A stretch of 64,000 bases of DNA from Minisyncoccota bacterium (GTDB lineage: Bacteria; Patescibacteriota; Minisyncoccia; Phycocordibacterales; UBA12079), in contig JAQTWD010000001.1 of NCBI GenBank assembly GCA_028689435.1, positions 96 to 64,095 of the forward strand, given 5' to 3'. The notes under the pieces were generated by a model. The model was not told the origin of the DNA, ran no database searches, and saw only the letters and a program-made list of their open reading frames with translations. The translations under genes were made by a program, and so were the position numbers. Below are positions 6,041 through 62,475 of this stretch, piece after piece (positions within the stretch are counted from its first letter, which is position 1; each line of letters begins with the position of its first letter).

Positions 6041-6101
6041 CCCTATAATTTTCAATTCCCGCCTGCCAAAGCCTGGCACTAGCGGGCAGGTCCAATTTAT
6101 G

Positions 6102-6130
6102 TTGACAATGAATGGTAATTCCCATAGTAT
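6102..6130 (+). promoter_or_regulatory. sigma70-like promoter TTGACA-N17-TAGTAT
   Basis: TTGACA at 6102-6107, 17-nt spacer, TAGTAT at 6125-6130, upstream of the EamA-like ORF. Confidence 0.55.
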
Positions 6131-6184
6131 GATTTGAGAAATTTTGTCACATCTTACAAACAAAATACGAGACAGAGGAACAAA

Positions 6185-6622
6185 ATGAACCCTTTGAAAT
6201 TGGCAGTAATTGCATCTCTTGGCTACGGACTATGTATGCCGTTTGCCAAAATGGCATATAAAAACGGTATGCACGCAAATGGTTTTTGCTTGTTATATGG
6301 AATAATCTTGGTGACAATTTCGTTGCCAACAATTTATTCCGGCGGAATGACCACCCTTTTTCCGAGCAACCCAGCACTGTGGTACGGAATAATTTCTACG
6401 CTAATTTGTGCTATTGGATTTAAAGCCCAAACAGACGCTTCGGCGGCCCCAGCTTCAATTCTCGCGGTTGTTTCAATTATCGCCGCAACTTATCCGTTGG
6501 TATCATCAAGTGTGCTTTTGCCGTTTATGGGCGAGGCGGGAAAAATTGTCGTTCCCAAATTTCTGTTCGGATCAGTCCTTATCATTGCTGGGGGTTTCTT
6601 GGTAAGCACCAGCCTCAAATGA
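6185..6622 (+). CDS. EamA/SMR-like small membrane transporter (single EamA-type domain)
   Basis: The ORF track frame opens at 6134. The ATG at 6185 follows AGAGGA, and the product MNPLKLAVIASLGYG... has 4-5 TM helices. GC visibly above surroundings. Confidence 0.55.
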   Translation: MNPLKLAVIASLGYGLCMPFAKMAYKNGMHANGFCLLYGIILVTISLPTIYSGGMTTLFPSNPALWYGIISTLICAIGFKAQTDASAAPASILAVVSIIAATYPLVSSSVLLPFMGEAGKIVVPKFLFGSVLIIAGGFLVSTSLK

Positions 6623-6627
6623 TTTCA

Positions 6628-6668
6628 TCGCTCAATGCAAAAAGTCGCATTGAGCGACTTTTTGTTTT
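6628..6668 (+). terminator. intrinsic terminator
   Basis: TCGCTCAATGC-loop-GCATTGAGCGA followed by CTTTTTGTTTT. Confidence 0.75.
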
Positions 6669-6671
6669 AGG

Positions 6672-6700
6672 TTGACAAATGCCTACAAAGACTTTATTAT
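6672..6700 (+). promoter_or_regulatory. sigma70-like promoter TTGACA-N17-TATTAT
   Basis: TTGACA at 6672-6677, TATTAT at 6695-6700. Confidence 0.55.
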
Positions 6701-6745
6701 TCAAAAAGAATTTTCGTAATATTTATCTCAACTGAGGGAGGAAAA

Positions 6746-6931
6746 ATGCGAGAAATTAAAAATGGTCCAAATCAAAAATTGAAAAAGAAATCATTTCTTG
6801 TAGCCGTAGCCAGTGTATTTGGAATATACATATTTGGAGGATGTCTAATTGTAGAAATATTTTTTACCCTATTATTTATGGTAGCCTGCGTCGTCTGTTT
6901 TTGTACACCATCAATAGATTATAAAAGCTGA
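6746..6931 (+). CDS. small membrane protein
   Basis: 61 aa. GGGAGG lies 5 nt upstream of the ATG. Two hydrophobic segments. Confidence 0.45.
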   Translation: MREIKNGPNQKLKKKSFLVAVASVFGIYIFGGCLIVEIFFTLLFMVACVVCFCTPSIDYKS

Positions 6932-6943
6932 CAAGGAGAAAAA

Positions 6944-7207
6944 ATGGACAAAAAAAGTTTCATTACTTGGATGCGTGCTATAGGTGAAATACGTGACAAA
7001 AATGTCCAACGACTGGTTATCTATCACATTACGGACTTAGCAACGGTATCAGAAAACTGGGAAACGTGGTCCAGTTCTGATAAAAAGGATTATTTGGAAG
7101 AAAGAATCGAATCTCTGAAAAAATTACCTGCTGACAATCACGACAGCGGGAGAATAGATACAATCATTAGTCGCCTGAGAAGACTAGAGAAAGATTTAAT
7201 GTGCTAA
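6944..7207 (+). CDS. hypothetical protein
   Basis: 87 aa. AAGGAG lies 6 nt upstream; a terminator follows. Confidence 0.5.
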   Translation: MDKKSFITWMRAIGEIRDKNVQRLVIYHITDLATVSENWETWSSSDKKDYLEERIESLKKLPADNHDSGRIDTIISRLRRLEKDLMC

Positions 7208-7252
7208 ACGCCCGACGCAAAACAAAAATCGCGTTTGGGCGATTTTTGTTTT
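7207..7252 (+). terminator. intrinsic terminator
   Basis: CGCCCGACGC...GCGTTTGGGCG followed by ATTTTTGTTTTT. Confidence 0.65.
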
Positions 7253-7283
7253 TAAAGTATCTAGATATTGCTGAATTAATATC

Positions 7284-7475
7284 TTATTTCTTATTTAATT
7301 GTTTAAAAACTTTTTCCTGTAATTCTTTATTTATCACCTGAATCGGCTCGAGAATTATTTTTTCATTTTTAAAACTTATTTCCAAAAAATCACCCTCTTC
7401 TAAACCCAAAACTTCTCTTATTTCTTTTGGAATAGTTATGACTCCTTTGGATTGTACTTTTAATAGTTTATTCAT
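7284..7475 (-). CDS. AbrB/MazE/SpoVT-family DNA-binding protein (antitoxin-like, no partner seen)
   Basis: 63 aa. KVQSKGVITIPKEIREVLGLEEGDFLEI matches the SpoVT-AbrB looped-hinge pattern. Confidence 0.7.
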   Translation of the reverse strand: MNKLLKVQSKGVITIPKEIREVLGLEEGDFLEISFKNEKIILEPIQVINKELQEKVFKQLNKK

Positions 7476-7538
7476 AACAAAAATAATAACAAAAAATTTT
7501 TCTTTGAAACACCCTCAGGCTTGCGCAAACTTGTGCAC

Positions 7539-7636
7539 AAAAAATACGACCGTATTTTTTATATCATTTTTCTGAATTTCCGAATTTCCGAATTATCATA
7601 AAATTTATGCGACCGCATAAATTTTATGATAATTCG
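7539..7636. repeat. two GACC-apex hairpins plus CCGAAT repeats
   Basis: AAAAAATAC-GACC-GTATTTTTT (7539-7562) and CCGAATTATCATAAAATTTATGC-GACC-GCATAAATTTTATGATAATTCGG (7588-7636). Confidence 0.6.
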
Positions 7637-7676
7637 GATAATAGCGACCTCACAAGAATTAATCCAGCACGGGTAA

Positions 7677-7705
7677 TTGACACTTTAAAATAGTTGATGT
7701 ATTAT
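7677..7705 (+). promoter_or_regulatory. sigma70-like promoter TTGACA-N17-TATTAT
   Basis: TTGACA at 7677-7682, TATTAT at 7700-7705. Confidence 0.55.
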
Positions 7706-7755
7706 CATAAATAGAAAAAGTGGTAAATTTTTTAACTCAATACAAGAAGTAAATA

Positions 7756-8526
7756 ATGGAACAATGGACGCTTGAAAAAATTTGTAGAGAAATGGAACAA
7801 AATCATAACACAGGTTCCCCTCTTTACAAACTCATCGTGCAAAGTAATCACGGAAAAATAAAAACTGATGTTCTTTTGGAGAAACAGACGCGAGTGGGCA
7901 GTATTGGTGATGTTACCAGATCAATACTTCCGGACTTCTTGAACGGCAACTTTGGCCTTAGTACCATAAATCATATATTTAGGCGACACGGAGCGGTATC
8001 TCTTGGTTTAGGCTTGGGTAGTTCTTGGCTTTGTTATAATCCATCAAGGTTCCCGTCCGATCTCGTATGTAGAACCCCGCTTGGGGGCGGGTTGATTACA
8101 CCAGAGTTGTCAGAAACAACCCCGTACTGGTTCAAGATAGAAAAGACGGAACTTTTTAAAAACTCAGGGTTTGAAACATTTTATCAGGTATATGAAGACC
8201 TAAAACAATCTGATTTGTTACATAAATGTCCTTCATACGCAGACGGAGGAGATCTGCGTGAACAGATAGAGTTGGTCAGATCACGTTTTGGAAACCAGAA
8301 CAAAATATTACTTTGGCGCTCGGTGTTTCTTGAAAAATTTCAGATCAAATATACCGAAGCACATATCAGTTTGACCGTCCCATATCTTGATTGCACTGAA
8401 AATGAAATCGGGAAAAAAAGGATAAAAATTTCCAAAGGCGGAAGATGGAATGATCTGACGAAACTCGGCGATGATGCCGAGGAAAAAAACCTTGAAGAGA
8501 ATTTTATTACCGTTATTTGCAAATAA
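7756..8526 (+). CDS. hypothetical protein (GC-richer single-gene cassette)
   Basis: 256-aa ORF with its own promoter and terminator. No family recognised. Confidence 0.6.
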   Translation: MEQWTLEKICREMEQNHNTGSPLYKLIVQSNHGKIKTDVLLEKQTRVGSIGDVTRSILPDFLNGNFGLSTINHIFRRHGAVSLGLGLGSSWLCYNPSRFPSDLVCRTPLGGGLITPELSETTPYWFKIEKTELFKNSGFETFYQVYEDLKQSDLLHKCPSYADGGDLREQIELVRSRFGNQNKILLWRSVFLEKFQIKYTEAHISLTVPYLDCTENEIGKKRIKISKGGRWNDLTKLGDDAEEKNLEENFITVICK

Positions 8527-8531
8527 CAAAA

Positions 8532-8566
8532 AGGGCGAAATTTTGCTTTAGCAAAATTTCGTCCTC
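8532..8566. terminator. bidirectional hairpin terminator
   Basis: GGGCGAAATTTTGC-TTTA-GCAAAATTTCGTCC between convergent 7756..8526 (+) and prfB (-). Confidence 0.6.
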
Positions 8567-8596
8567 TTTAATTTAAAATCTAAAATTTAAAATTTT

Positions 8597-9484
8597 CTAT
8601 AGGTTTTTCTCGGCCTCTATAAATTCATCTATCTCCCCATCATCCAATACTTTATCAACATCTCTCACCTCTACCCCAGTTCTATGATCCTTTACCTGTT
8701 TATAAGGATGCAATACATATGAACGGATTTGGCTTCCCCACTCATTTTCTACCGTCGCACTTATCTGCATTCCCTTTTCTTGCTTTAACCTGTCTTCTTC
8801 TTGTTTTTTGATCAATTTTGCTTCTATCATAGCAATCGCTTTCTCTCTATTTTGCATCTGAGACCTTTCTGATTCTACATGAACAGCAATGTTTGTTGGG
8901 ATGTGCACCACTCTAACAGCCGTTTCTCTTTTATTTACATTTTGTCCCCCAGGGCCCGATGATTTTGCAAATTCTATTTTCAAATCTTCCTCTGGAATAT
9001 TTATCTCACCCGCTTTTTCCAATTTTGGTATTACCTCTACCATAGAAAAAGAAGTATGTCTTTTTTGTTGAGCGTTGAAAGGAGAAATTCTCACGAGACG
9101 ATGCACTCCTGATTCATTTTTTAATTTTCCATATGCTCCGTTACCAATAACTTCAAAAGTAATATTTCTGTAACCGCCATGATCATTTTCATTTGAATGA
9201 ATTAGAAAAGTTTCCCAGTTTTTATTTTGAGAAAATTTTAAATACATATTATATAAAATTCTAGAAAAATCTTCCGAATCATCTCCGCCTGCTCCTGACA
9301 AAATAGTTACGACTGCATTTCCTTTATCATATTTTCCCACTCCTTCTAACTCATCTTTCAATTGATTAAATTCTTTTATAACCACCTGTGCAGTTTCTTT
9401 GTCGTTCCAAAAATCAGCACGGCTCATTTGTTTTTCCAGTGCTTCTATTTTTTTTAATATTTCATTTTTTTTATCCGTACTCAT
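8597..9484 (-). CDS. prfB: peptide chain release factor 2 (short form, no programmed frameshift seen)
   Basis: 295 aa. SPF tripeptide (RISPFNAQ), GGQ motif (SGPGGQNVNK), WGSQIRSYVLHPY. Confidence 0.85.
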   Translation of the reverse strand: MSTDKKNEILKKIEALEKQMSRADFWNDKETAQVVIKEFNQLKDELEGVGKYDKGNAVVTILSGAGGDDSEDFSRILYNMYLKFSQNKNWETFLIHSNENDHGGYRNITFEVIGNGAYGKLKNESGVHRLVRISPFNAQQKRHTSFSMVEVIPKLEKAGEINIPEEDLKIEFAKSSGPGGQNVNKRETAVRVVHIPTNIAVHVESERSQMQNREKAIAMIEAKLIKKQEEDRLKQEKGMQISATVENEWGSQIRSYVLHPYKQVKDHRTGVEVRDVDKVLDDGEIDEFIEAEKNL

Positions 9485-9716: not shown

Positions 9717-9863
9717 AAAATTAATTTTAAAAAATACTAAATTCTAATACCTAAATCCTAAACAAATTCAAGTTTTTTAATTTCCAAAATTTAAAACCTT
9801 TGTATTTTAAATTTTTGATAATTTGTCATGTTGCTTGCTAAAGCAAGTTGTTTAGAATTTAGA

Positions 9864-9883
9864 CCTGCCTGCCGGCAGGCAGG
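9864..9883. repeat. 20-nt perfect palindrome CCTGCCTGCCGGCAGGCAGG
   Basis: Exact palindrome, one of at least 6 copies in the window. Confidence 0.8.
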
Positions 9884-9974
9884 CAGGGTTTAGTGCTTAG
9901 AGTTTTAATTAAAAAGGACATTTTCGTATAAGACATCTCAAAGACATCAAAAAGACAAAACTGGGGATAACCTA

Positions 9975-10001
9975 TTGACTTTTATATAAAAGTGCTATAA
10001 T
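9975..10001 (+). promoter_or_regulatory. sigma70-like promoter TTGACT-N15-TATAAT
   Basis: TTGACT at 9975-9980, TATAAT at 9996-10001. The spacer is short (15 nt). Confidence 0.45.
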
Positions 10002-10055
10002 TAGAATAGGAAAAGGGTGATTTGTCAATAATCTCTGTTTTTTGTGGAGGATATT

Positions 10056-10280
10056 ATGACGACCTGGGCACGTGAAGAAGCACTTGAGGCGTTGTACGAA
10101 GTCACTTCCTTCGCTTTCATGAGCAAGGAAGACCAGGAGAGGGCGATTGTTCATCAGATTGTTGTGATGAACGGGAGTCCTGCCCAAATGGAACGACTCC
10201 GTCAACAGGAAGCTCTGCGAGCAGACCATCTCGCCAATCAGTGTGGTGAACGATTGCTTCGTAGGTATTCAATCCATTAA
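10056..10280 (+). CDS. hypothetical protein (GC-rich cassette)
   Basis: ATG at 10056 preceded by GGAGG (5-nt spacer). 74 aa: MTTWAREEALEALYEV... Region clearly GC-richer than its flanks. Confidence 0.5.
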   Translation: MTTWAREEALEALYEVTSFAFMSKEDQERAIVHQIVVMNGSPAQMERLRQQEALRADHLANQCGERLLRRYSIH

Positions 10281-10316
10281 CCCAAAGGAGGTACGATGAC
10301 GTCCGTAGATATTTAA

Positions 10317-10352
10317 GACCCCGTTCGCACAAGCGACACGGGGTCTGTTTTT
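10317..10352. terminator. intrinsic terminator shared by convergent genes
   Basis: GACCCCG-loop-CGGGGTC followed by TGTTTTTATTTTTTT. Overlaps the murC stop. Confidence 0.75.
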
Positions 10353-11940: not shown

Positions 11941-12188
11941 TGCGAATGCCAGGACTCGAACTCTGAAACACTCCATCGTGTTTCAGCCCGTCATTATCAG
12001 ATTAAATAGTTCCCAAGAACTGTTTAATCGCTCTAACTTTTTAAAGATAAAATAATGTATTAAGTGCGAATGCCAGGACTCGAACCTGGGACCTCGTCAT
12101 TATCAGTGACGCGCTCTAACCACCTGAGCTACACTCGCACTTAATACACTATTTTATTTTTAAAAAGAGCCACCTGAGCTACACTCGC
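11941..12188 (-). pseudogene. outer tRNA-Ile-like gene split in its D-loop by a 133-nt cassette carrying the intact tRNA-Ile
   Basis: cgctctaa (12029-12036) plus ccacctgagctacactcgc (12170-12188) together reproduce the D-arm of the intact gene. The 3' part keeps CTGATAATGACG and GAGTTCGAGTCCTGGCATTCGCA. Unrelated hairpins replace the anticodon-stem and T-stem 5' strands. Confidence 0.7.
12065..12138 (-). tRNA. tRNA-Ile (anticodon GAU)
   Basis: Reverse complement reads GCGAGTGTAGCTCAGGTGGTTAGAGCGCGTCACTGATAATGACGAGGTCCCAGGTTCGAGTCCTGGCATTCGCA, a canonical cloverleaf. Confidence 0.9.
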
Positions 12189-12460
12189 ATTTATATTTGA
12201 TTTTACCACAAACTCTATATGACGAGGTCCCCGAGTCATTATTAGGTGAGACAGTCTGGGAGACTGTCGAACCGCTCTAACCACCTGAGCTACACTCGCA
12301 CTTAATACACTATTTTATTTTTAAAAAGAGCCACCTGAGCTACACTCGCATTTATATTTGATTTTACCACGAACTCTATATGACGAGGTCCCCGAGTCAT
12401 TATTAGGTGAGACAGTCTGGGAGACTGTCGAACCGCTCTAACCACCTGAGCTACACTCGC
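12139..12460 (-). repeat. 2 x 161-nt tandem repeat built from tRNA-Ile fragments
   Basis: Unit 12139-12299 repeats at 12300-12460 with one mismatch. Each unit holds two copies of the tRNA-Ile 5' segment (ccacctgagctacactcgc) and a degenerate tRNA-like body with hairpin GACAGTCTCCCAGACTGTC. Confidence 0.8.
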
Positions 12461-12475
12461 ATATTTTATTTTTAA

Positions 12476-12600: not shown

Positions 12601-12629
12601 TAAAAAACTCCCGCCATTGCTGACGGGAG
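12601..12629 (-). terminator. intrinsic terminator of 12635..13186
   Basis: Minus strand: CTCCCG-TCAGCAATGG-CGGGAG followed by TTTTTTA. Confidence 0.75.
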
Positions 12630-12634
12630 AATAT

Positions 12635-13186
12635 TCAATTTTTGAGGAAATCCTCCAAAGGCTTTGCCTCTTCGGGGGTACTTAGATCAAGACGAATCCG
12701 GTCTAAACAAAAGAATAAAAATTCCAGAGCTTGCCCGTGTTTTTTAAGCAAGCGGTTTTTCTTTAAAAGAATCCGAAGGACATCTTCTGAAACCATTTCT
12801 GCAAACTTTAAAGTCTTGCAAGGACGAGGGTCTCCCTCTTCCAGTTTTGCAAGATAAAAATTTGCCAAATGCTTTCCATCCTCAGATTCCGACTCCGCCG
12901 TAAAAAACGGAATATCACTCAATCTCTCAAAAGAAATTCCGCATACCTCCGAGAGTATTTTAATACCCGATAAACGGGAATTTTTTTGAATATCATCCGA
13001 AGAATCAATTGACCCTCCGGGAAATTTAACAAAAAAGTTTTCCCAACGAGAACCTCCCTCTTTTTTACTCGGGTCCTCCATAACAATTAAAATATCTATT
13101 CCCTTCTTGTTATTTTTTTGTAAGATTATGCCGAAGCCGGCATAACTTGTCCTGCCGGTCTCTCTTACTTTTACTTCGGCTTGCAT
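12635..13186 (-). CDS. Nudix-like hydrolase (degenerate Nudix box; tentative)
   Basis: 183 aa. FPGGSID...ILSEVCGI loosely fits GX5EX7REUXEEXGU. Own promoter, GGGGG upstream of the ATG, and terminator. Confidence 0.45.
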   Translation of the reverse strand: MQAEVKVRETGRTSYAGFGIILQKNNKKGIDILIVMEDPSKKEGGSRWENFFVKFPGGSIDSSDDIQKNSRLSGIKILSEVCGISFERLSDIPFFTAESESEDGKHLANFYLAKLEEGDPRPCKTLKFAEMVSEDVLRILLKKNRLLKKHGQALEFLFFCLDRIRLDLSTPEEAKPLEDFLKN

Positions 13187-13233
13187 ATTTACCCCCTATT
13201 TATGTATACAAAATGAACATTATTTCAAGCCAA

Positions 13234-13262
13234 ATAATATCTTAATTAACAAAATGTGTCAA
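13234..13262 (-). promoter_or_regulatory. sigma70-like promoter TTGACA-N17-TATTAT (minus strand)
   Basis: Reverse complement of tgtcaa at 13257-13262 and of ataata at 13234-13239. Confidence 0.55.
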
Positions 13263-13469
13263 TAATAAAAAGCCACCTCTTGGCGACTTCTTTTTTTGCA
13301 TTTAAACGACAATATAATCTTTCTTTTGTTTCGTTTCATTCCCTAGTAACGGACATCTAGGGATACCGAGTATAGATTTAGGGATACAATACTATTGTCC
13401 CTATCACTTAAGAAGTGATAATCAACCGATTAAGTCTGTTTCCTCGTAAGAAAACAAACAGTTCATTTT

Positions 13470-15062
<1,593 letters not shown>

Positions 15063-15452: not shown

Positions 15453-15484
15453 AAAAGCAAAAAGGGGCGTCGCGCAAACGCCCC
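15453..15484 (-). terminator. intrinsic terminator
   Basis: Minus strand: GGGGCG-TTTGCGCGA-CGCCCC followed by TTTTTGCTTTT. Confidence 0.65.
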
Positions 15485-15660
15485 AAAGACACAAGTGCCG
15501 AAGGTGTAGCTCCACAGTGGGCGACCGTTCAAAAGGGACGGCTTAATCCTTCTCAAGTTCCTGCAGTTGATCTAAATTGTGAACCCCTTGAGATCCAATT
15601 TAGACAGGTCGTTGGCTGTCAGGAATTTTATCTTTCGACCTCCTATACAAAAACAGGGAA
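15485..15660 (-). ncRNA. candidate structured small RNA (unclassified)
   Basis: GC-rich island ending in the terminator at 15453-15484. It has interleaved complementary segments (15552-15561/15581-15592 and 15571-15579/15596-15604). No long ORF. Confidence 0.3.
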
Positions 15661-15724
15661 TTAAAAACACCTGTATCTATTTCAAATAATATTACAAAAA
15701 CTTATAAAATGAAACCCTAATGAA

Positions 15725-15760
15725 ATCTTAAAGTTTTCACGGTCGTGAAAACTTTAAGAT
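15725..15760. repeat. GACC-apex hairpin
   Basis: ATCTTAAAGTTTTCAC-GGTC-GTGAAAACTTTAAGAT. Confidence 0.7.
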
Positions 15761-15800
15761 GTTTATTTTTTATTTAGCTTTGAATTACAAAATGTGGATT

Positions 15801-15916
15801 CCTGCCTGCCGGCAGGCAGGGCTTCACTTCGTTCGTAAAGACGGTAGTGGGACGAACATCCGAAGATTGTTCGTCTTCGCGAGTGAAACGAAGCGACCTG
15901 CCTGCCGGCAGGCAGG
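15801..15916. repeat. two CCTGCCTGCCGGCAGGCAGG palindromes bracketing a CTCGCGAAGACG-type inverted repeat
   Basis: Exact 20-mers at 15801-15820 and 15897-15916. Between them, TTCGTTCGTAAAGACG...CGTCTTCGCGAGTGAAACGAAGCG. Confidence 0.75.
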
Positions 15917-15975
15917 TCCACGTCGTTCGTTCGCTTCGTTCCCGCCTTCGCTGAAACTATGGCAAGGCACGACGC

Positions 15976-16018
15976 AAAAACGAACAAGGAGGGAAATTTG
16001 CGAAGCAAATTTCCCTCC
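15976..16018 (-). terminator. intrinsic terminator downstream of secF
   Basis: Minus strand: GGAGGGAAATTTGC-TTCG-CAAATTTCCCTCC followed by TTGTTCGTTTTTG. Confidence 0.65.
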
Positions 16019-16070
16019 TAAATTCTAGTTTCTAAATTCTTCTTAATACTTACACCTTACTCCTTACACC

Positions 16071-16982
16071 TTATGCCTTACTACTAAACTTCTGCCAAGT
16101 AACCAACAAAGGAGATGCCAAAAAGATTGATGAATAAGTTCCAGCAATCACTCCGATTGAAAGTACTAAAGTAAAATGTTTTGTCGTCTCTCCCCCAAAG
16201 AAAAACAAAAATAGCAAGGCAATCAAAACAGTTAATGAAGTGTTGATTGATCTACCAAATGTTTGGCTCAAACTTTTTCCAACAATTTCCTCAAACGATT
16301 CTCCTTTGCTACTATTTTTCAAGTTCTCTCTTACTCTATCAAAAACAACAATCGTATCATTAACAGAAAATCCAAGAATTGCCAAAAGCGCGGTTACAAA
16401 CAAAATATCTATTTGATAATCAATAAACATACTGCCAAGCAACACGAAAACTCCGGTAGGAATAAGGATATCGTGAATCAATGCGAAAATAGCCACGGCT
16501 CCGTATTTCCAAGAAGAAACTCTTTCTTTTCCTAATTCTGAAACTTTTCTAAATGAAAAAGCGATAAAAAGAATAATTGCGATAACAACAAAAATCAAAG
16601 CCAAAACCGCTTTACTCTTTAATTCTTGACCAATAACAGGACCAATTGAATTAAATCTTTTTTCTTCAATTTGAATTGTGTTATCAAGAGATAGTGCATT
16701 CATAACAGAAACTCTTTCAGTTTCTGTAAGATTTTTTGTTCTCAAAATAACTCCATTTTCTCCAATATCTTGAATTGTATAATTCCCCAAATTCAAAGCA
16801 TTCAATTTTTCTTTTACAACATTTAAATCAGCTTTTTCTACTGGATAACCTATTTCGGTAATTGCTCCTCCTGTAAAATCTATCCCTAGATTAAAGCCGT
16901 AAAAAACAGAAGCAAAAATAGATGCTCCGACCAAGATTCCTGATATTGTGTAAAATATTTTTCTGTATTTAATTACAAACAT
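16071..16982 (-). CDS. secF: protein translocase subunit SecF
   Basis: 303 aa, SecD/SecF family, six TM helices, GIDFTGG and DTIVVFDRVRE motifs. Confidence 0.9.
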   Translation of the reverse strand: MFVIKYRKIFYTISGILVGASIFASVFYGFNLGIDFTGGAITEIGYPVEKADLNVVKEKLNALNLGNYTIQDIGENGVILRTKNLTETERVSVMNALSLDNTIQIEEKRFNSIGPVIGQELKSKAVLALIFVVIAIILFIAFSFRKVSELGKERVSSWKYGAVAIFALIHDILIPTGVFVLLGSMFIDYQIDILFVTALLAILGFSVNDTIVVFDRVRENLKNSSKGESFEEIVGKSLSQTFGRSINTSLTVLIALLFLFFFGGETTKHFTLVLSIGVIAGTYSSIFLASPLLVTWQKFSSKA

Positions 16983-17187
16983 GTTTCAAATTAAAAGTTT
17001 AAATCTCAAAGTGCAAAATGACAAATCAAAATTTAAAATTTATATAGATTAAAATAATAAAATAATGCTCACATCTTATATTAAATAAATTCTTAGGACA
17101 AGGTCTGTGAACGTTTTTTCTCTGTATTAATTCCGCGTTTATCCGCGTCAGTTCCGAGTAATTCTGCGATAAAATAAATCTCAAGAT

Positions 17188-22891: not shown

Positions 22892-22931
22892 AATATTTAT
22901 CAAGTTTATATTTATATAATTTTTAAAAAAA

Positions 22932-22967: not shown

Positions 22968-23003
22968 AATCGGGAAATACCAGATTACAAAACATACTTA
23001 TTT

Positions 23004-53803: not shown

Positions 53804-54122
53804 AAATTATAAATTTTAAATGATAAATTTTAAATTAAACATCTCCGTCTTTGCGAGTGGTTTTTTTAGTGGAATTTTTAAAAACAAAGTTTTTAAAAAT
53901 TCCACTAAAAAAATCACGAAGCAATCCAGAAAGATAAAATAAAGTCACTAATGACTTTTTAACAAAAATAATAATATACCAAAAACCCGACAAAAGCAAC
54001 GAAATTTTGCTAGGCAAAATTTCTAGGTGTAAGGGTTAAGGAGTAAGGTGTAAGTAAATTGATACAATTAACCTAAACAAAAATTACTAACAAAAAATTA
54101 AAAGTTACAAAATATAAAAAAC

Positions 54123-54164
54123 ATAATCTTAAACTTCTGACGACCGTCAGAAGTTTAAGATTAT
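54123..54164. repeat. GACC-apex hairpin ATAATCTTAAACTTCTGAC-GACC-GTCAGAAGTTTAAGATTAT
   Basis: Perfect 19-bp stem. Related copies at 55254, 55927 and 15725. Confidence 0.75.
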
Positions 54165-54404
54165 TTATTTTTTAAAGTTAATATCAAATTCTAACTACTA
54201 AAATAATGTTTAAAATATTGCACCCGCAAAAATTTGAACATTTTTTATATTCTCAATTCAAATACTCTTTACTCAATCCATACGACCGTATAAATTGAGT
54301 AAAAGAATATTTTTGTTATATACATGTGTAATATATACGTAATGTGTATAAAGTTGACGACCGTCAAAGTCATACACATTTTAAAAAATGAATTATTAAA
54401 TTTT

Positions 54405-54487: not shown

Positions 54488-55111
54488 CTATTTATCCAAG
54501 TTACTGTTACGAGAAAAAGCGCGGCAGTCAGCGCTCCACCGAGAGCCATCCAACAGATACGCAATCACACGCCACTCCCGATCGTCGGCGTTCCAGTACA
54601 CAATCACGGCAAAGACCTCATCGTTTTTTCCGCGAACATAGAAAATGTTTGCTTTGCCGTTATTAACGAGAACGCCGACTTCACCGTTCGGTTGCCGATC
54701 GATCATACCGGCAAGGACGGAGCAAAATTCACTCGCATCCTCGTAGATGTACCCCTCACCAAGCCTCTTTTGGGTCTCGGCGTCGTTCATCGGCGTTGGC
54801 AGATCAAAGTGATTTGCCCCGTCCATCGACACTTTCGCAATCTTTTTTGCAACGGACAAAATCCTGTCGCGAAAGTTGTCGGAGACCCAGAGACCTTGGC
54901 GGGTCACGAAGAATTTGCGAGGATCAAAAAAACCTATTTTTTCTGCGATGCTTTGAAGTTCTTCCGCGACGAACTCCACATCCGACTCCGTGCCGGTTTC
55001 CCGAATTCTTTTCTTGATTTCGTCCACTCGGCGGGTGAAAAGCCCGAGATCCTCGTTGGACATTCTATAACCTTTTTTCACACCGTCGCCAACAACTTTC
55101 GTCGTTTCCAT
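54488..55111 (-). CDS. hypothetical protein (GC-rich cassette inside the str operon)
   Basis: The track frame opens at 55195. The ATG at 55111 follows AGAGGA and lies downstream of a consensus promoter. Product METTKVVGDGVKKGY..., 207 aa. Confidence 0.6.
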   Translation of the reverse strand: METTKVVGDGVKKGYRMSNEDLGLFTRRVDEIKKRIRETGTESDVEFVAEELQSIAEKIGFFDPRKFFVTRQGLWVSDNFRDRILSVAKKIAKVSMDGANHFDLPTPMNDAETQKRLGEGYIYEDASEFCSVLAGMIDRQPNGEVGVLVNNGKANIFYVRGKNDEVFAVIVYWNADDREWRVIAYLLDGSRWSADCRAFSRNSNLDK

Positions 55112-55186
55112 GACAGTTTCCTCTTTTTTTGTTTTCGGTTTTAGACAGTTTTTAAGCCGTCGTGTTAAGGTACAAATTACACAATC

Positions 55187-55215
55187 AATATACACATCGC
55201 GTCAAACAAAGTCAA
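55187..55215 (-). promoter_or_regulatory. sigma70-like promoter TTGACT-N17-TATATT
   Basis: Reverse complement of agtcaa at 55210-55215 and of aatata at 55187-55192. Confidence 0.55.
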
Positions 55216-55253
55216 TATATTAAAAAACTCTAGTAAAAAATTAAAGAATGTAT

Positions 55254-55290
55254 CATCTTAAACTTTTGACGACCGTCAGAATTCTAAGAT
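55254..55290. repeat. GACC-apex hairpin ATCTTAAACTTTTGAC-GACC-GTCAGAATTCTAAGAT
   Basis: Lies between the two island genes, downstream of the PaaX-like paralog. Confidence 0.7.
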
Positions 55291-55359
55291 TATTTTAAAA
55301 AACGTTATTTATTATCTATAATCTCTACCCTCTTATTTCTTGTCTATCATCTATTTAAA

Positions 55360-55911
55360 TTATTTTAAACCAAAAAACTCCTTCAACCGACTTTCGTTTT
55401 CTATCCTATTTACTTCCATATATAAAACATCACTATCAACAAAAAAATTTGTTTTAAGCAAAAATATCAATTCTTCACATTCATAAGGAAACACCCAAAC
55501 ACTGTTTTGTAATTTAACAAAACCAATTCTTTCTAAATTTGACCTTAATAAATTTCTTAAATTTCTTTTCTTTTCTTCTACATCAAAAATAACCACTCTC
55601 CATTTTTTATCCCATCGTTTTGGCTTTTTTATCTCCAAATCACCCAACTCATATTTTGCGAACATCTCCTTTCCTTTTTTTGTAATTTTTATAAATTCAG
55701 AATTGCCTTTTCTAACTTTTTCTAACAAACCTTTTTCTAATAATTTTTTTATGGTTTCACTTAAATAGTATCTTTCATTTACCCATTTCTTTTTATTTGG
55801 TGAAAATTGTTTTACTACCTGCAATGCGTTTGGAGCAACAACGGCAATACCAATCAAACCAACCGCAACAACAGTCTTTAAAATAATTTTTTGATAATTT
55901 ATATTACTCAT
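55360..55911 (-). CDS. PaaX-like / Cas2-fold domain protein with N-terminal TM helix (paralog of 23004..23564)
   Basis: The track frame opens at 55932, but that extension overlaps the upstream hairpin. The likely start is MSNINYQKI at 55911. KRWDKKWRVVIFDVEEKKRNLRNLLRSNLERIGFVKLQNSVWVFP. Confidence 0.55.
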   Translation of the reverse strand: MSNINYQKIILKTVVAVGLIGIAVVAPNALQVVKQFSPNKKKWVNERYYLSETIKKLLEKGLLEKVRKGNSEFIKITKKGKEMFAKYELGDLEIKKPKRWDKKWRVVIFDVEEKKRNLRNLLRSNLERIGFVKLQNSVWVFPYECEELIFLLKTNFFVDSDVLYMEVNRIENESRLKEFFGLK

Positions 55912-55926
55912 ACTATATATATTAAC

Positions 55927-55972
55927 ATACAATCTTAGAATTATGACGACCGTCAGAATTCTAAGATTGTAT
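55927..55972. repeat. GACC-apex hairpin ATACAATCTTAGAATTATGAC-GACC-GTCAGAATTCTAAGATTGTAT
   Basis: 16 nt upstream of the PaaX-like start. Confidence 0.7.
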
Positions 55973-56753: not shown

Positions 56754-57164
56754 TTAAGCTTTTGGTTTTTTTGTTCCATAACGACTTCTTCCCTTTCTTC
56801 TCTTGTCTACTCCAGATGTGTCAATCTTTCCTCTAACAATTGTATATCTAATACCAACGTCTTTTACTCTACCTCCTCTAAGCAAAACAACTGAGTGTTC
56901 TTGCAAATTGTGTCCCATACCTGGAATGTAAGCAGTTACTTCCAATCCATTTGTTAGACGTACTCTGGCAATCTTTCTAATAGCAGAGTTTGGCTTTTTA
57001 GGAGTCTTTGTTGTAACTTTTGTACAAACACCTCTTTTAAAAGGAGCTGGGTAATAGTTTGGCTTGTTCTTTTCATTATTAAAACCACGACGAAGAGCGA
57101 TAGCTTTTGGCTTCTTTACAACTTTTTTTCTGTTTTTCTTAACAAGCTGATTAACTGTTGACAT
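56754..57164 (-). CDS. rpsL: 30S ribosomal protein S12
   Basis: 136 aa. [20 protein letters not shown] and GHNLQEHS. Confidence 0.95.
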
Positions 57165-57277
57165 ATTTCAAATTAAAAATTTAAATCTCAAAATTGAAAA
57201 TTACAATTCAAAATGTAAAATTCATTTCAAGTGCCTATAAATCTACTATATTATTAAATAAAATGCAAATTTATACT

Positions 57278-58400: not shown

Positions 58401-58430
58401 TTGCTATTTTTTTAAATATATTTATATAAT
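58401..58430 (+). promoter_or_regulatory. sigma70-like promoter TTGCTA-N18-TATAAT
   Basis: TTGCTA at 58401-58406, TATAAT at 58425-58430. Confidence 0.5.
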
Positions 58431-58469
58431 TAAAAAGGAAGTTCATATAAACTCAACGGAGGAAGCGGA

Positions 58470-58646
58470 ATGAAAGAAGGACAGTGTGTTACAACATCAA
58501 GAGTCGCAGTAGGAAAAAAGCGGGACAAAAATTATTTCAATTCATGCGCAGAAAACGAACCTCGACTCGATTTATGTAAAGGCTGTATTTTATTGGACGA
58601 ATGTCCGATAAGAAAGGCAGCCCTTGAAATTAAATCCCACAATTAA
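58470..58646 (+). CDS. small 4-Cys protein (C-x10-C-x2-C-x5-C)
   Basis: GGAGG lies 7 nt upstream. Own translation, 58 aa: MKEGQCVTTSRVAVGKKRDKNYFNSCAENEPRLDLCKGCILLDECPIRKAALEIKSHN. Confidence 0.45.
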   Translation: MKEGQCVTTSRVAVGKKRDKNYFNSCAENEPRLDLCKGCILLDECPIRKAALEIKSHN

Positions 58647-58651
58647 ACAAA

Positions 58652-58689
58652 GGTGTGCTTGGAAATCGAGTTTTCCAAGCACGCCTTTT
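58652..58689. terminator. hairpin terminator between convergent genes
   Basis: GGTGTGCTTGGAAA-TCGAG-TTTTCCAAGCACGCC followed by TTTT. Confidence 0.8.
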
Positions 58690-59561: not shown

Positions 59562-59580
59562 TAGAAATATTTTAACAAAT

Positions 59581-59620
59581 AAAAAACAGTCCCGTATTCA
59601 CATACGGGACTGTTTTTTAT
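59581..59620 (-). terminator. intrinsic terminator downstream of creD
   Basis: ACAGTCCCGTA-loop-TACGGGACTGT with A/T runs on both sides. Confidence 0.8.
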
Positions 59621-61026
59621 TAAAATATTTTTGTTTGAAGGTCGTTATCTCTATCATCAATAGAATACCAATCAACTTTTCGTGAAAGATACATTATTGT
59701 TGAAAGAATAAAGAACAAACCAACACTACCTATAAACAACGCGTAATCTTCTAGTTGAAGCAAGATATAAATAAACAAATACAAAAATATCAAAACACCC
59801 CCTTCTATAAACACGAGTTTCTTTTCGTTTAAAATCGTATATGAATACAACAAGATAAGTCCTACAGTAGAAACCCCTGCTATTCCATAAGCAATATTAA
59901 ATCCCAATATTTCTGAAATTGATACCAACAAAGAATAGAAAAGTACGAGAGCTAGACCCACAAGAATATACTGAATTGGGTGGACTCTTCTTCTATTAAA
60001 TATTTCAAAAGAAAGAAATACTAAAAATGTAAGAGCTATTATCAATAGTGCGTATTTAGCAGAACGATTTGATTTTTGATAATCGTCAACCGGTTTTATC
60101 AAACTCACGCCAAAAACAGAATCATAAATACCATATGTACTACCTGTCCATGATTGTGGATAATTTCTATTTAAATCCAATATGTGCCAATCGCTTTTGA
60201 AACCATTTTCATCGATTTCTCTATTGTCTGGCAAAAAAGAACCGTCAAAACTTGGAGCCGTCCAAGCCGAAGATACTTTTACATCGGTAGTTTTTCCAAC
60301 AGGAACAAAAGCGATCCTTTCACTTCCCTTCAACTTTAAATCAAAAGAAAATGTATTTTTTGAAGAAAGAGCGCTGGAAGGAACATTAACACTCAACCCA
60401 GAAGAACTTTTACCAAAACCCTCCATTGTAACCATTTTTGCCTCAATTTCTCTGTTAGGATATACACCTCCTCCAATGTCTCTAATAACATCATCTGTTT
60501 TTATTCCAGAAATAAATTGAAGTTTTTGATTATTTAAATTAAAATCGGTTCTCTCTTCTAATCCTCTGATATCTGGAATACCCACAGAGATAAAAGCATT
60601 ATTCCAATGTATATATTGCAAACCTATTCCCAAAGAAGCAAAATCTGGTTTCTCAAAATCTCCAGAAAAAGAAATATTTGAAGAATAAACAACCGCGTCA
60701 TAAATTCCGCGAGATCTTAATTCAGGAGAAATAGTTGTTTCAATATTTAAATGTTCTGGAAGAAAATGAGCATAAGCAGTTTCTTTAATTTGTTTTCCGT
60801 CAACTGTTTTGTATAAATCATAAGGAACTGTCAAAATAGGTCCTGCTATAATTTGTTCATTTCCCCATTTTGATGTTATGTCTTGAATGGCAAATTCACG
60901 ATTATTTTCTCTGTCATGTATTACAGACTTAATCATTTCAACAGGAATAAGTAATAAAAGAGCAAGAATTGCAACAAAAACAGCTCTAAGAGTTGTACTT
61001 TGTAATATTTTTTGTATTTTGTTCAT
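59620..61026 (-). CDS. creD: cell-envelope integrity inner-membrane protein CreD
   Basis: 468 aa. N-terminal LLLLIPVEMIKSVIHDRENNR pattern as in E. coli CreD; five C-terminal TM helices. Confidence 0.8.
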   Translation of the reverse strand: MNKIQKILQSTTLRAVFVAILALLLLIPVEMIKSVIHDRENNREFAIQDITSKWGNEQIIAGPILTVPYDLYKTVDGKQIKETAYAHFLPEHLNIETTISPELRSRGIYDAVVYSSNISFSGDFEKPDFASLGIGLQYIHWNNAFISVGIPDIRGLEERTDFNLNNQKLQFISGIKTDDVIRDIGGGVYPNREIEAKMVTMEGFGKSSSGLSVNVPSSALSSKNTFSFDLKLKGSERIAFVPVGKTTDVKVSSAWTAPSFDGSFLPDNREIDENGFKSDWHILDLNRNYPQSWTGSTYGIYDSVFGVSLIKPVDDYQKSNRSAKYALLIIALTFLVFLSFEIFNRRRVHPIQYILVGLALVLFYSLLVSISEILGFNIAYGIAGVSTVGLILLYSYTILNEKKLVFIEGGVLIFLYLFIYILLQLEDYALFIGSVGLFFILSTIMYLSRKVDWYSIDDRDNDLQTKIF

Positions 61027-61035
61027 AACGCTATT

Positions 61036-61623
61036 TTACCACTTATTCAAAATTTTGAAATCTTTTAACAAAATTTCTCTCATTCCCCCGTTATATAAAG
61101 CCACCGCTGGATGATATAAAGGAATTATTTTTACCTTGCCGTATGCATAAGATTTCCCGTGCGCCTTGCTAATCGGCTCAATCTGATTTTCCAAACCAAA
61201 ATGTCGCATTACATATTCAAAAGAAAATCTCCCAAGAGTTGCAATTATTTTGGGCTGGATTATTTCAATCTGTCTATCCAAAAACGGTCCATACAATTTT
61301 ATTTCTTCAGCAGACGGGTCGCGATTGTCCTCTGGCCTATCTTTCACAATATTAGTTATATAAACGTCTTCTCTTTTTAGATTTACAGAAACCAACATAA
61401 TATCCAGAAATTTTCCTGACGCACCGCAAAAAGGCTTGCCAGTTTGGGCTTCTTTTTTACCAGGAGCTTCGCCGACAAACATAATCTTTGAATTCAAACT
61501 TCCTTCTCCAACGACAGGAAAAAATTTGTTCTCAATACGATATTTATACAAAGGAGATTGTTTGAAATCAATTAATTCCCTCTCAATTTTTTTCATCAAT
61601 TCAATCTTTTTTTTCATAATCAA
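61036..61623 (-). CDS. uracil-DNA glycosylase, family 4
   Basis: 195 aa. GEAPGKKEAQTGKPFCGASGKFLD and HPAVALY. Confidence 0.85.
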   Translation of the reverse strand: MIMKKKIELMKKIERELIDFKQSPLYKYRIENKFFPVVGEGSLNSKIMFVGEAPGKKEAQTGKPFCGASGKFLDIMLVSVNLKREDVYITNIVKDRPEDNRDPSAEEIKLYGPFLDRQIEIIQPKIIATLGRFSFEYVMRHFGLENQIEPISKAHGKSYAYGKVKIIPLYHPAVALYNGGMREILLKDFKILNKW

Positions 61624-61713
61624 ATAATATCACAACTTGTGGCTTGTCATTCTAATTTATGATATAAATTTATCAGAAACGAATTTTTTAAAAAACCCTA
61701 ACAAGGAGATTCT

Positions 61714-62421
61714 ATGTCAGTATTAACCTGTATGATTCTATCCGGCGAACTTAGTAGTTCTGATATCACAAAAGCAATTGAACTGAGTGATTACAACAAA
61801 GAGACAATCATTGCCGGACTGGAAACAAACCAACTTTCAACTAGGCAAATGTTAAAAATTTTGAAAGGAGTTGAAGAACGAGTTTTTCAGGGAAAAGACG
61901 AGATTTCTCAAAAAATTGTCGCGAAAATAAGTTTCAAAGGACTTTCGTGGGAGAAAAAAATCGGAATGATACCAGAACACAAACACAACATTCCGCTTAC
62001 TCGCAGAATAGTCAGGTCAATTCTCTGGAAAAATCTTAGCCAAAAAAATTTGGAAAAAGCGGTTAAATTGTCCCACTATAATCACTTTGTTCTGATTGCC
62101 GCAATAGAAACTGGTAAACTCACGAACCAAACAAAATTTGAAGCGATCAAAAAAGTGTCAGGAAACGGAAAAGATCGCCCACGCATTACCGATGCAGTTA
62201 TTCGGATGAACCACTGGGGAGAGATGAGTGTCATCGATTGCTGTGTTGCGATAACACTGAGCGGAGGAAACAGAAAAATTGCCGAATCAGTAAAAGATCA
62301 CATAGATTTCAAAAAGATGTCTTTGGAAACGATTCTCAAGGTTATTGAACTCTCTGGCAGACATATAGTGATTATGGATGCTGTTGGGAAAGAAATGGAT
62401 AGACGAGGTTTGAGAAAATAA
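61714..62421 (+). CDS. hypothetical protein with about 3 internal helical repeats
   Basis: 235 aa. AAGGAG lies 6 nt upstream. Repeats resemble KAIELSDYNKETIIAGLETNQLS / KAVKLSHYNHFVLIAAIETGKLT. Confidence 0.55.
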   Translation: MSVLTCMILSGELSSSDITKAIELSDYNKETIIAGLETNQLSTRQMLKILKGVEERVFQGKDEISQKIVAKISFKGLSWEKKIGMIPEHKHNIPLTRRIVRSILWKNLSQKNLEKAVKLSHYNHFVLIAAIETGKLTNQTKFEAIKKVSGNGKDRPRITDAVIRMNHWGEMSVIDCCVAITLSGGNRKIAESVKDHIDFKKMSLETILKVIELSGRHIVIMDAVGKEMDRRGLRK

Positions 62422-62429
62422 TTTTGTTT

Positions 62430-62475
62430 AAGCCGGAAAAACTTTGTGCACAAAGTTTTTCCGGCTTATTTTATT
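62430..62475 (+). terminator. intrinsic terminator
   Basis: AAGCCGGAAAAACTTTGTG-CA-CAAAGTTTTTCCGGCTT followed by ATTTTATTT. Confidence 0.85.

Follow-up and report, generated by a model that had tools for sequence, protein, structure and literature searches.

Shine-Dalgarno-led accessory gene cassettes in a Campbellbacteria genome whose 16S rRNA apparently lacks the anti-Shine-Dalgarno sequence

The subject of this analysis is a 64,000-nucleotide stretch of contig JAQTWD010000001.1 (positions 96 to 64,095; hereafter the window) and a set of small gene cassettes that are scattered between its housekeeping genes and carry canonical Shine-Dalgarno (SD) motifs of the GGAGG type. In the textbook model, an SD motif works only by pairing with the 3' tail of 16S rRNA. 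Here, the housekeeping genes have no SD motif and the anti-SD sequence CCUCC has evidently been lost from 16S rRNA throughout the clade, yet the SD-led genes form a distinct, autonomously signalled class that is richer in GC at third codon positions (GC3), and their motif recurs in homologues from related genomes. We consider the chances about even that GGAGG is kept by selection within cells lacking the anti-SD and is read by a factor other than the 16S tail, rather than being a scar of import.

The window has 33% GC and its rRNA genes are dispersed (16S, 13466-15061; 23S, from 36989 down to ~31258; 5S, 30626-30733; all on the reverse strand). In a protein scan with release factor 2 (RF2), the closest genome was Candidatus Campbellbacteria GW2011_OD1_34_28 (CP011215.1, our locus L004), with an RF2 protein identity of 96% and a core-gene DNA identity of ~90%. 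A second Campbellbacteria genome (L005) had an RF2 identity of 81% and other Parcubacteria were further off. By these comparisons the window clearly belongs to a Candidatus Campbellbacteria (Parcubacteria) genome.

SD-led and SD-less genes and the 16S tail

Pairing with the canonical anti-SD sequence ACCUCCUUA was scored in 66 curated genes as the duplex energy of the 22 nt that precede each start. The energies were bimodal, with 12 genes at or below -8.5 kcal/mol, two at -6.0 kcal/mol and the remaining 52 at or above -4.6 kcal/mol, the last in agreement with a preliminary description of the window, made from its letters alone, in which core genes were said to lack SD motifs. Random 22-nt windows reach -8.5 kcal/mol in 1.9% of cases (binomial p = 3e-9 for 12 of 66), and SD motifs are thus not equally common at random positions. 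In the 12 strong-SD genes, the motif-to-start spacing is 4-9 nt. At this distance, GGAGG, AAGGAG or AGGGGG precedes the starts at 6746, 6944, 10056, 26806, 44844, 58470 and 61714 on the forward strand and those at 13186, 38436, 44054 and 44683 on the reverse strand, which confirms 11 starts of the earlier list; of its other entries, 55111 has a weak GAGG and 10296 opens an open reading frame (ORF) of only six codons. The motifs that had been called weak, at 6185 and 44508, are both weak, but position 44508 is an ATA and the true ATG lies at 44505. One further SD-led gene, missing from the earlier list, starts at 45707 on the reverse strand.

The two classes also differ in composition, length and annotation. 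SD-led genes have a GC3 of 0.362 when compared to 0.255 for the others (Mann-Whitney p = 1.6e-4), a GC content of 0.389 versus 0.325 and a median ORF length of 116 aa versus 201 aa. The cassettes are therefore GC-richer, as had been judged by eye, although the ORF 37417-38436, one of the examples then given, is so only marginally (GC 0.35). A Pfam domain was found in none of 16 cassette proteins but in 14 of 21 non-SD proteins tested (p = 2e-5), and no cassette product gave a PHROG or PADLOC match either, so that the earlier impression of products without recognisable function holds for these three resources.

Cassette promoters and terminators were called by consensus scans. Exact TTGAC[AT]-N17-TAnnnT sites occur seven times in the window (2.4 ± 1.5 expected by chance), and six of them lie 46-76 nt upstream of the cassette ATGs at 6185, 6746, 7756, 26806, 13186 and 55111 (binomial p = 9e-14). 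Two other promoters that had been described with the same exact spacing, at 38595 (TTGACT-17-ATAAAT) and 44766 (TTGATT-17-TAATAT), are weaker matches. Terminator-like hairpins follow 10 of 15 cassette genes as against 13 of 51 others (p = 0.005), bearing out the view that cassettes usually end in terminators, and across the first 60 kb of the window terminators are about threefold more frequent than in shuffled sequence. The native 23S promoter, TTGACA-16-TATACT, has the same -35 element as the cassettes, which makes native transcription of the cassettes plausible; presumably, the consensus read by the resident RNA polymerase is the same for both. Most cassette leaders lack structure and in this respect resemble ordinary ribosome-binding regions. 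The idea of a common mobile promoter module was rejected, as the regions comprising promoter and untranslated region (UTR) share consensus elements only and are not homologous.

The SD-less genes are ordinary ones, namely ftsE/X, prfB, murC, secD/F, rpsL/G, fusA, tuf, the S10 operon up to rplB and infC-rpmI-rplT, as well as genes for a glycosyltransferase, CreD, YceG, PAP2, an M50 peptidase and an MBL-fold protein. These genes have AU-rich leaders that often consist of low-complexity short repeats and are without excess complementarity to the native 16S tail. Hexamers resembling a -10 element end 4-9 nt before core-gene ATGs in 16 cases versus ~7 expected (~2.3-fold; p = 0.002), and upstream of gene 27073 a TATAAT ends 7 nt before the ATG. 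This enrichment supports the earlier suggestion of leaderless initiation for a subset of core genes, including 27073. Among the core leaders, those at 16979-17043, 30283-30347, 42378-42450 and 57161-57225 are made up of the short repeats ataagctataagct, ctaagaactaagaac, cactactcactac and ttcggataaattcgtagattcgg. Low-complexity leaders are also found upstream of tuf, rpsJ, rplD, rplC, rplB and rplT, and one 65-nt leader family is common to secF, rpsL, fpg and a 252-aa gene.

The 16S rRNA gene (13466-15061, reverse strand) matches Rfam SSU_rRNA_bacteria with 1333.9 bits over model positions 1-1533, and its helix 45 is intact with a GGAA loop. Its 3' tail at 13480-13466 reads GGAAUAUUUCAAAA, and directly after helix 45 the gene has GGAAUAUUUCAAAAUGAAC where GGAUCACCUCCUUA is usual, such that the CCUCC anti-SD is not present. 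CCUCC is absent from the entire window 16S and from the 85 nt that follow it. Tails of this kind also occur in L004, L005 and L006, and a scan with the helix-45 sequence returned CCUCC-free, variable A/U-rich tails in 119 of 120 metagenomic 16S 3' ends. The ribosome without anti-SD, a supposition in the preliminary description, thus holds across the clade, and the loss is apparent clade-wide. Within the passages of Tsurumaki et al. (2022, RNA 28:1041; PMC9297842) drawn on here, an anti-SD motif is given for only 48% of Parcubacteria, and the anti-SD-less members have, like the window, a 16S tail without CCUCCU; those passages treat the rRNA feature only and conclude that no SD helices are formed, and a minority of SD-led genes is not mentioned in them.

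Several candidate substitutes for the lost pairing were rejected. Downstream of the 16S gene, cggttgattatcacttcttaag resembles CGGUUGGAUCACCUCCUUA, but it is a hairpin with a loop that differs in L005 and L006. Elsewhere in the 16S, the best partner of AAGGAGGU is the universally base-paired 338 region (-7.9 kcal/mol). A co-evolved variant SD is not indicated either, since core leaders pair with the native tail GGAAUAUUUCAAAAUGAAC at -3.05 kcal/mol when compared to -3.07 for shuffles and -3.26 for intergenic windows. In most bacteria, the frameshift of prfB is SD-stimulated and could serve as an internal control of SD use. The prfB gene of the window (8597-9484, reverse strand) consists of one uninterrupted ORF of 295 aa; it has no site for a programmed +1 frameshift and thus provides no such control; its Pfam PCRF match covers the C-terminal half of the domain model (profile positions 95-194 of 194).

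Retention of the motif, cassette turnover and possible readings

In five families, all homologues examined have an SD-like motif upstream, amid UTR bases that vary. The 6185 family shows AGAGGA, GAGGAA or GAGGAG, kept in L004 and L007. In the 10056 family GGAGG is replaced by AAGGAG or GAGGAG in L004 and L100 and by AGGGGG in L005. The 13186 family has AGGGGG in three genomes with differing flanks, and cellular members of the 55111 family have AGAGGA, AGGAGG or AAAGGAG. Eight distinct members of the 38436 family, from 46% down to 23% identity, carry GGAGG, AAGGAGG, AAAGGAG, TGGAGG, CAAGGAGG or AGGAG. No SD was seen at the visible neighbours of these homologues (genes for RRF, an M50 peptidase, an ABC transporter, a cold-shock protein, RibD_C and a 252-aa core protein). 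Retention of the motif in all homologues amid SD-less neighbours argues for selection on the motif inside genomes without the anti-SD.

A similar picture was obtained for the clade at large. In the 120 metagenomic loci, an exact SD at proper spacing precedes 4.2% of ORF starts but 0.96% of internal ATGs (odds ratio 4.5, p = 4e-7), whereas an energy-based test on the same loci gave a weak difference (4.9% versus 3.5% at internal ATGs). As 119 of these loci are without anti-SD, the exact-motif enrichment implies that the clade as such has a minority of SD-led genes. The Parcubacteria loci obtained in the RF2 scan were all SD-poor (0-11% of genes at or below -8.5 kcal/mol); in controls from outside the candidate phyla radiation (CPR), 27-50% of genes lie at or below -6 kcal/mol.

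Relatives can be compared with the window over its 1-20 kb and 46-55 kb parts, and there the cassettes turn over rapidly. Window positions 6621-8606, comprising the 6746/6944 unit, a MazE-like gene and the 7756 unit, correspond to only 460 nt in L004, where another small membrane ORF, led by GAGG, and the remnant of a homologous terminator are found; the 6746/6944 and 7756 units are missing from both L004 and L005. Positions 15453-16041 are also missing from L004, and in L005, where prfB and ftsE are only 95 nt apart, 6185-6622 is missing. In the case of the 6185 homologue of L004 (81% protein identity), the ratio of nonsynonymous to synonymous substitution rates (dN/dS) is 0.085 and dS is 1.45 when compared to ~0.5 for neighbouring core genes, as would be expected if a divergent allele had recombined in. 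Homologues of 10056 stand at the same position in L004, L100 and L005, with 42-44% protein identity as opposed to 96% for core proteins, and the 13186 homologue (L004, L100) has 86% protein identity and a dN/dS of 0.10. The view of the cassettes as indels, put forward earlier as a synteny check, therefore stands for 6621-8606 and 15453-16041 but not for the 10056, 13186, 6185 and 55111 families, which are syntenic in relatives (the first three among L004, L005 and L007, the last in L029).

The 55111 gene encodes a 207-aa protein with 15 homologues, of which the only named one is from Campbellbacteria. The family lies upstream of fusA in the window and in L029 alike, and the L029 homologue has 65% protein identity, a dN/dS of 0.27 and a 40-nt 5' UTR with one mismatch. 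A 229-aa SD-led (AAAGGAG) paralogue is inserted between rpsJ and rplC of L029, and the homologue in L033 stands at an unrelated site behind AGGAGG. For core genes, dN/dS is 0.008-0.08 against L004 and 0.06-0.20 against L029, and cassettes exceed them 3-30 times in nonsynonymous rate. By these rates the cassettes evidently remain under purifying selection and are not decaying relics, which indicates that their proteins are made and used. They also evidently belong to a flexible gene pool of the clade, whose members are inserted, deleted or swapped for divergent alleles.

Cassette homologues were all found in similar AT-rich CPR-like contigs, with one phage homologue besides. The latter is a 158-aa ORF (5779-6255) of the IMG/VR phage contig IMGVR_UViG_3300002098_000015 (L160) that matches the C-terminal domain of the 207-aa family with 55% identity over 55 aa. 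The contig (47% GC) has genes for products that resemble tail fibres, lysin and holin; a strong SD match precedes one of 14 ORF starts checked (the lysin-like gene, AAAGGAG), and the contig suggests a phage of an SD-independent host. A phage origin of the cassettes by sequence was not adopted, as the 339-aa protein of the 38436 gene and the 256-aa protein of the 7756 gene have no IMG/VR relatives and the C-terminal domain of the 207-aa protein alone matches. No integrase, transposase or phage structural gene was found in the window. The preliminary proposal that the cassettes are recently acquired modules agrees with the indels and replaced alleles in comparison with ~90% identical genomes and with the phage-shared domain, but not with the synteny of several cassettes, the purifying selection and the SD kept in five families.

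The 339-aa family, with 67 representatives, combines a retained SD with a structured leader. The GC3 of its members follows that of the genome in which each resides, a sign of long residence, and the SD has been kept all the same. An AlphaFold2 (AF2) model of the protein has a predicted local distance difference test (pLDDT) score of 91.5 and no fold match in PDB or BFVD, and the family profile gave no match in PDB sequences or Pfam. Its conserved leader RNA of ~80 nt (38541-38464, reverse strand) forms three hairpins with compensatory changes in 16 of 41 predicted pairs among six sequences; homologues lie at L034 5897-5974, L035 163-242, L156 140-217, L157 239-318 and L158 1449-1527. The covariance model built from it (R1) scores 76-95 bits on six homologues and 17 bits on a distant one and found nothing else in 925 kb of related DNA, whereas Rfam gave no credible match, only sub-threshold miRNA models. 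R1 matches only the 339-aa family, and the leader was therefore rejected as a general cassette feature. It is a candidate for a new cis-regulatory RNA or riboswitch.

In sum, housekeeping genes start translation without an SD, some of them apparently leaderless, and a dozen or more self-sufficient accessory transcription units are interspersed among them. Each unit combines a near-consensus sigma-70 promoter and a leader of ~30-75 nt (~150 nt in the 339-aa family, where it is conserved, structured and riboswitch-like) with a GGAGG-type motif at 4-9 nt from the AUG, a short ORF that is GC3-richer and lacks any recognisable domain, and an intrinsic terminator. Paralogues of the units occupy other sites, including the inside of ribosomal-protein operons. 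GGAGG would most likely be a translation-initiation or translational-control element with a reader other than the 16S 3' tail. Selection inside anti-SD-less cells is favoured because every sampled family member sits among SD-less neighbours, and we give this reading of the motif, as opposed to an import scar, roughly even chances. That accessory mRNAs are initiated or controlled through GGAGG by a specific non-tail reader (a protein, a trans-acting RNA or another ribosomal site), amounting to two-tier translation, is a more speculative version that we hold to be rather unlikely.

A number of observations weigh against selection on a motif that is read by a factor other than the tail. No molecule able to read GGAGG was found in the 16S or the 64-kb window, and no ATCACCTCCTT-like or tail-complementary small-RNA candidate for a trans-acting anti-SD RNA turned up within that window. 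The motifs of 6185 and 55111 are weak (GAGG, -6.0 kcal/mol), the 7756 cassette is without SD, and so is the phage homologue of the 207-aa family. One of the 120 metagenomic 16S ends (L082) has a canonical CCUCC tail with the same helix-45 sequence. Homologue contexts amount to only ~20 UTRs from five families, with a bias toward relatives of the query, the 3' end of the mature 16S was inferred from alignment, and the analysis covers 64 kb of a genome of ~750 kb.

Among the rival explanations, the best supported holds that the cassettes belong to a shared mobile pool and often cycle, by phage, plasmid or recombination, through anti-SD-positive Parcubacteria, where selection keeps the universal package of promoter, SD and terminator; in anti-SD-less hosts the SD would be inert and initiation SD-independent as in core genes. 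Indels, divergent alleles at the same site, elevated dS, paralogues at different sites, the phage homologue of one family and a cassette GC3 above the genome background are all in agreement with such cycling, as is the anti-SD kept by about half of Parcubacteria according to the passages cited above (PMC9297842). The CCUCC tail of L082 means that anti-SD-positive relatives exist and could feed the pool. Given the clear mobility of the cassettes and the occurrence of a canonical 16S tail in one member of the clade, this rival stays live, and we regard it as a real though lesser possibility. It has to contend with SD-less neighbours in every inspectable context, with RF2-sampled Parcubacteria relatives that are all SD-poor, with the long residence implied by the GC3 of the 339-aa family, in which the SD is still kept, and with a phage homologue that itself has no SD.

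Alternatively, the cassettes might be neutral relics, that is recent horizontal imports from SD-using donors whose SD, promoter and GC content are undecayed scars. Their atypical composition, their patchy presence in close relatives and the lack of a function common with the core genome would fit, but several cassettes are syntenic across genomes in which synonymous sites are ~50% to fully saturated, and the UTR sequence has changed on either side of an SD-like motif that is never missing, as in eight of eight inspected 339-aa members at 23-46% identity. Together with the purifying selection on cassette proteins and with homologues that are all detected in AT-rich, SD-poor contigs, with no donor lineage visible, this renders the relic explanation improbable.

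A further alternative is a regulatory handle, a special case of the reading that we favour, in which GGAGG or GGA is the site of a trans-acting repressor (a CsrA-like protein or a CCUCC small RNA) and ribosome recruitment is SD-independent. The motif is conserved and placed at the start codon, stands below the conserved structured leader in the 339-aa family, and can pair with an upstream pyrimidine tract in some cassettes. However, the spacing of 4-9 nt is exactly that of a ribosomal SD, no CCUCC-bearing small-RNA candidate was seen, and no regulator turned up in the 64 kb, in which no dedicated regulator search was made; all in all, we think a handle of this kind quite improbable.

Expression in a foreign context, with cassettes built for the bacterial host of the episymbiont or for phage-supplied SD reading, has as its sole support that the signals are generic bacterial consensus with which the resident ribosome cannot pair. 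It is very improbable, considering that no transfer machinery was found, that the cassettes are not clustered but scattered singly among core genes, that the native 23S promoter has the same -35 consensus and that the related phage contig is itself SD-less. Finally, chance or an ORF-calling artefact, to which the lack of homologue evidence for the small ORFs 6746, 26806, 58470 and the 44166-44683 trio and the choice of starts partly with the motif in view might point, is scarcely credible and is refuted for the class as a whole by the SD enrichment and promoter placement (p = 3e-9 and 9e-14) and by composition, terminators, Pfam status and homologue conservation, which are independently tied to it.

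Individual cassettes and other elements of the window

On the forward strand, the first cassette (6102-6657; GC 0.44, GC3 0.43) has a promoter TTGACA-17-TAGTAT (6102-6130), the weak GAGG, a 145-aa membrane ORF (6185-6622) and a terminator at 6628-6657. It is followed by a two-ORF cassette (6672-7258) with promoter TTGACA-17-TATTAT (6672-6700), GGAGG before a 61-aa membrane ORF (6746-6931), AAGGAG before an 87-aa ORF (6944-7207) and a terminator at ~7209-7258. The SD-less cassette at 7677-8565 comprises promoter TTGACA-17-TATTAT (7677-7705), AAGAAG upstream of a 256-aa ORF (7756-8526; GC3 0.38) and a terminator at 8532-8565, and an identical copy of its gene was found on three short Logan contigs. 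In the cassette at 9975-10346, TTGACT-15-TATAAT and GGAGG (10046-10050) precede a 74-aa ORF (10056-10280; GC 0.50); a second GGAGG stands before the six-codon ORF at 10296, with the terminator (10316-10346) right after. The cassette at 26722-27036 has promoter TTGACA-17-TATCTT (26722-26750), GGAGG (26797-26801), a 61-aa Cys-rich ORF (26806-26991; GC 0.51) and a strong terminator (26999-27036).

Further forward-strand cassettes lie at 44766-45117 (TTGATT-17-TAATAT; AAGGAGG, 44829-44834; 81-aa membrane ORF, 44844-45089; terminator, 45092-45117), at 58401-58688 (TTGCTA-18-TATAAT; GGAGG, 58458-58462; 58-aa Cys-rich ORF, 58470-58646; terminator, 58649-58688) and at 61640-62470, where AAGGAG (61703-61708) leads a 235-aa internally repetitive ORF (61714-62421; GC3 0.36) followed by a terminator at ~62431-62466. 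The product of the last ORF gave no Pfam, PHROG or PADLOC match.

On the reverse strand, directly downstream of the 16S gene, the cassette at 12608-13262 has promoter TTGACA-17-TATTAT (13262-13234), AGGGGG, a 183-aa ORF (13186-12635) and a terminator at 12629-12608. The cassette of the 339-aa ORF (38436-37417) spans 37369-38623, with the weak promoter TTGACT-17-ATAAAT at 38623-38595, the structured leader RNA, GGAGG at 38448-38444 and a terminator at 37394-37369; the 23S promoter comes immediately after it. At 43568-44167, GGAGG (44063-44059) leads a 147-aa ORF (44054-43611) with a terminator at 43593-43568, and a terminator at 44167-44132 parts this cassette from the upstream unit. The latter is a three-gene mini-operon (44132-44740) that ends in that terminator and has GGAGG at 44693-44689; its ORFs, a GTG-start 57-aa Cys-rich one (44683-44510), a 53-aa one (44505-44344) and a 56-aa one (44336-44166), are all without a Pfam match.

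Also on the reverse strand, the SD-led 181-aa ORF 45707-45162 (unit 45162-45725; AAAGGAG, 45721-45715), whose product had no PHROG or PADLOC match, follows rplB directly, in the place usually taken by the rest of the S10 operon. Over 45162-46838 the S10 operon ends after rplB, and SD-led cassettes are found in place of rpsS-rplV-rpsC. The 207-aa ORF (55111-54488; GC 0.50, GC3 0.58) belongs to a cassette at 54488-55215 with promoter TTGACT-17-TATATT (55215-55187) and a weak AGAGGA, bracketed by palindromes at 54103-54166 and 55232-55295. A fold search with the AF2 model of its protein (pLDDT 79.8) gave no significant PDB or BFVD match, and a HigB2/RelE-like identity was not used, as the best fold match (E = 0.24) was too weak.

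Palindromes of two kinds occur in the window. A GC-rich one, CCTGCCTGCCGGCAGGCAGG, has six intergenic copies (9853-9889, 15790-15826, 15886-15922, 38633-38669, 48694-48730 and 63097-63133), several of which adjoin cassettes or sit upstream of rRNA genes. Long AT-rich perfect palindromes with a CGGTCG/CGACCG centre lie at 1318-1361, 15725-15760, 22924-22968, 23606-23650, 24163-24207, 38735-38778, 54103-54166, 55232-55295 and 55909-55972. They bracket the two PaaX-like paralogues (23004-23564, 55360-55911), the template region of a diversity-generating retroelement and the 207-aa cassette, and look like module boundaries or bidirectional terminators. The retroelement (21662-26204) is complete, with a reverse transcriptase (21662-22891, RVT_1), a bAvd-like gene (24462-24824) and a target gene whose product ends in an Lcl_C domain (24876-26204); 14 of the 15 differences between its template repeat (23827-23976) and variable repeat (24862-25011) fall at template adenines.

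Further repeats and insertions were found in and around the RNA genes. The 23S gene (31258-36989, reverse strand) runs past the first Rfam match, with exons at 32384-32489 and within 31258-32360; two insertions, with LAGLIDADG-type ORFs (32594-33283 and 31695-32183), separate them. A repeat of ~103 nt with purine/pyrimidine-rich arms and a AAATTTGC..GCAAATTT hairpin occurs once in an intergenic region (5945-6047), once in the 16S (13867-13969) and three times in the 23S (34382-34484, 35386-35488 and 36595-36697) and may be a mobile rRNA intervening sequence. Between an intact tRNA-Ile(GAT) gene (12064-12138) and the 13186 cassette lie tandem 161-nt repeats (12112-12461), each with part of that tRNA, which may be the scar of repeated integration.

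Relation to known systems and significance

Phage morons, in the sense of Hendrix and Juhala, are autonomous promoter-gene-terminator units of deviant composition. The cassettes are moron-like in having, according to consensus scans, their own promoter and terminator, an odd composition, a variable presence and, in one case, a phage-shared domain. Unlike morons, they do not lie in a prophage but beside ftsE, prfB, murC, 16S/23S, rpsG, fusA and rplB, and their proteins are without PHROG match. With integron cassettes they share small size, variability, mostly unknown function and single-gene organisation, some being bracketed by palindromes, but they have their own promoters, are scattered rather than arrayed, and neither an integrase nor a family of attC-like sites was seen in the window; they are not integron cassettes.

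In Bacteroidota, in particular Flavobacteriia, most genes are reportedly SD-less with A/U-rich leaders and a few exceptional genes keep strong SDs. The window is similar in both respects. In Bacteroidota, however, the anti-SD is present but sequestered, such that the SDs have a partner, whereas here no partner exists in the 16S. Organisms without anti-SD are generally without SDs too (Amin et al., 2018; PMC6107228), and the core genes of the window agree with that survey and with Lim et al. (2012), as far as the latter is cited there, in showing neither SD enrichment nor a co-evolved variant SD. The genome-wide motif tests of those surveys returned SDs as absent; here, a discrete 5-18% of genes have canonical SDs that are conserved among homologues.

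Anti-SD loss and flexible moron-like cassettes are thus familiar, and the unexplained part is the conservation of SDs without a 16S partner. The clade breaks the survey rule in a structured way, as vertically inherited genes have lost their SDs and fast-turnover accessory genes keep them over deep divergence, along with promoters of consensus type and terminators. The cassettes also lead to protein families that fold confidently but resemble no known fold, and to a candidate for a new cis-regulatory RNA. If the motif is read by a factor other than 16S rRNA, a new mechanism of initiation or control would be at work in these bacteria; if it is instead kept by gene flow through SD-using hosts, the presence of SDs would allow horizontal transfer in uncultivated CPR bacteria to be traced quantitatively.

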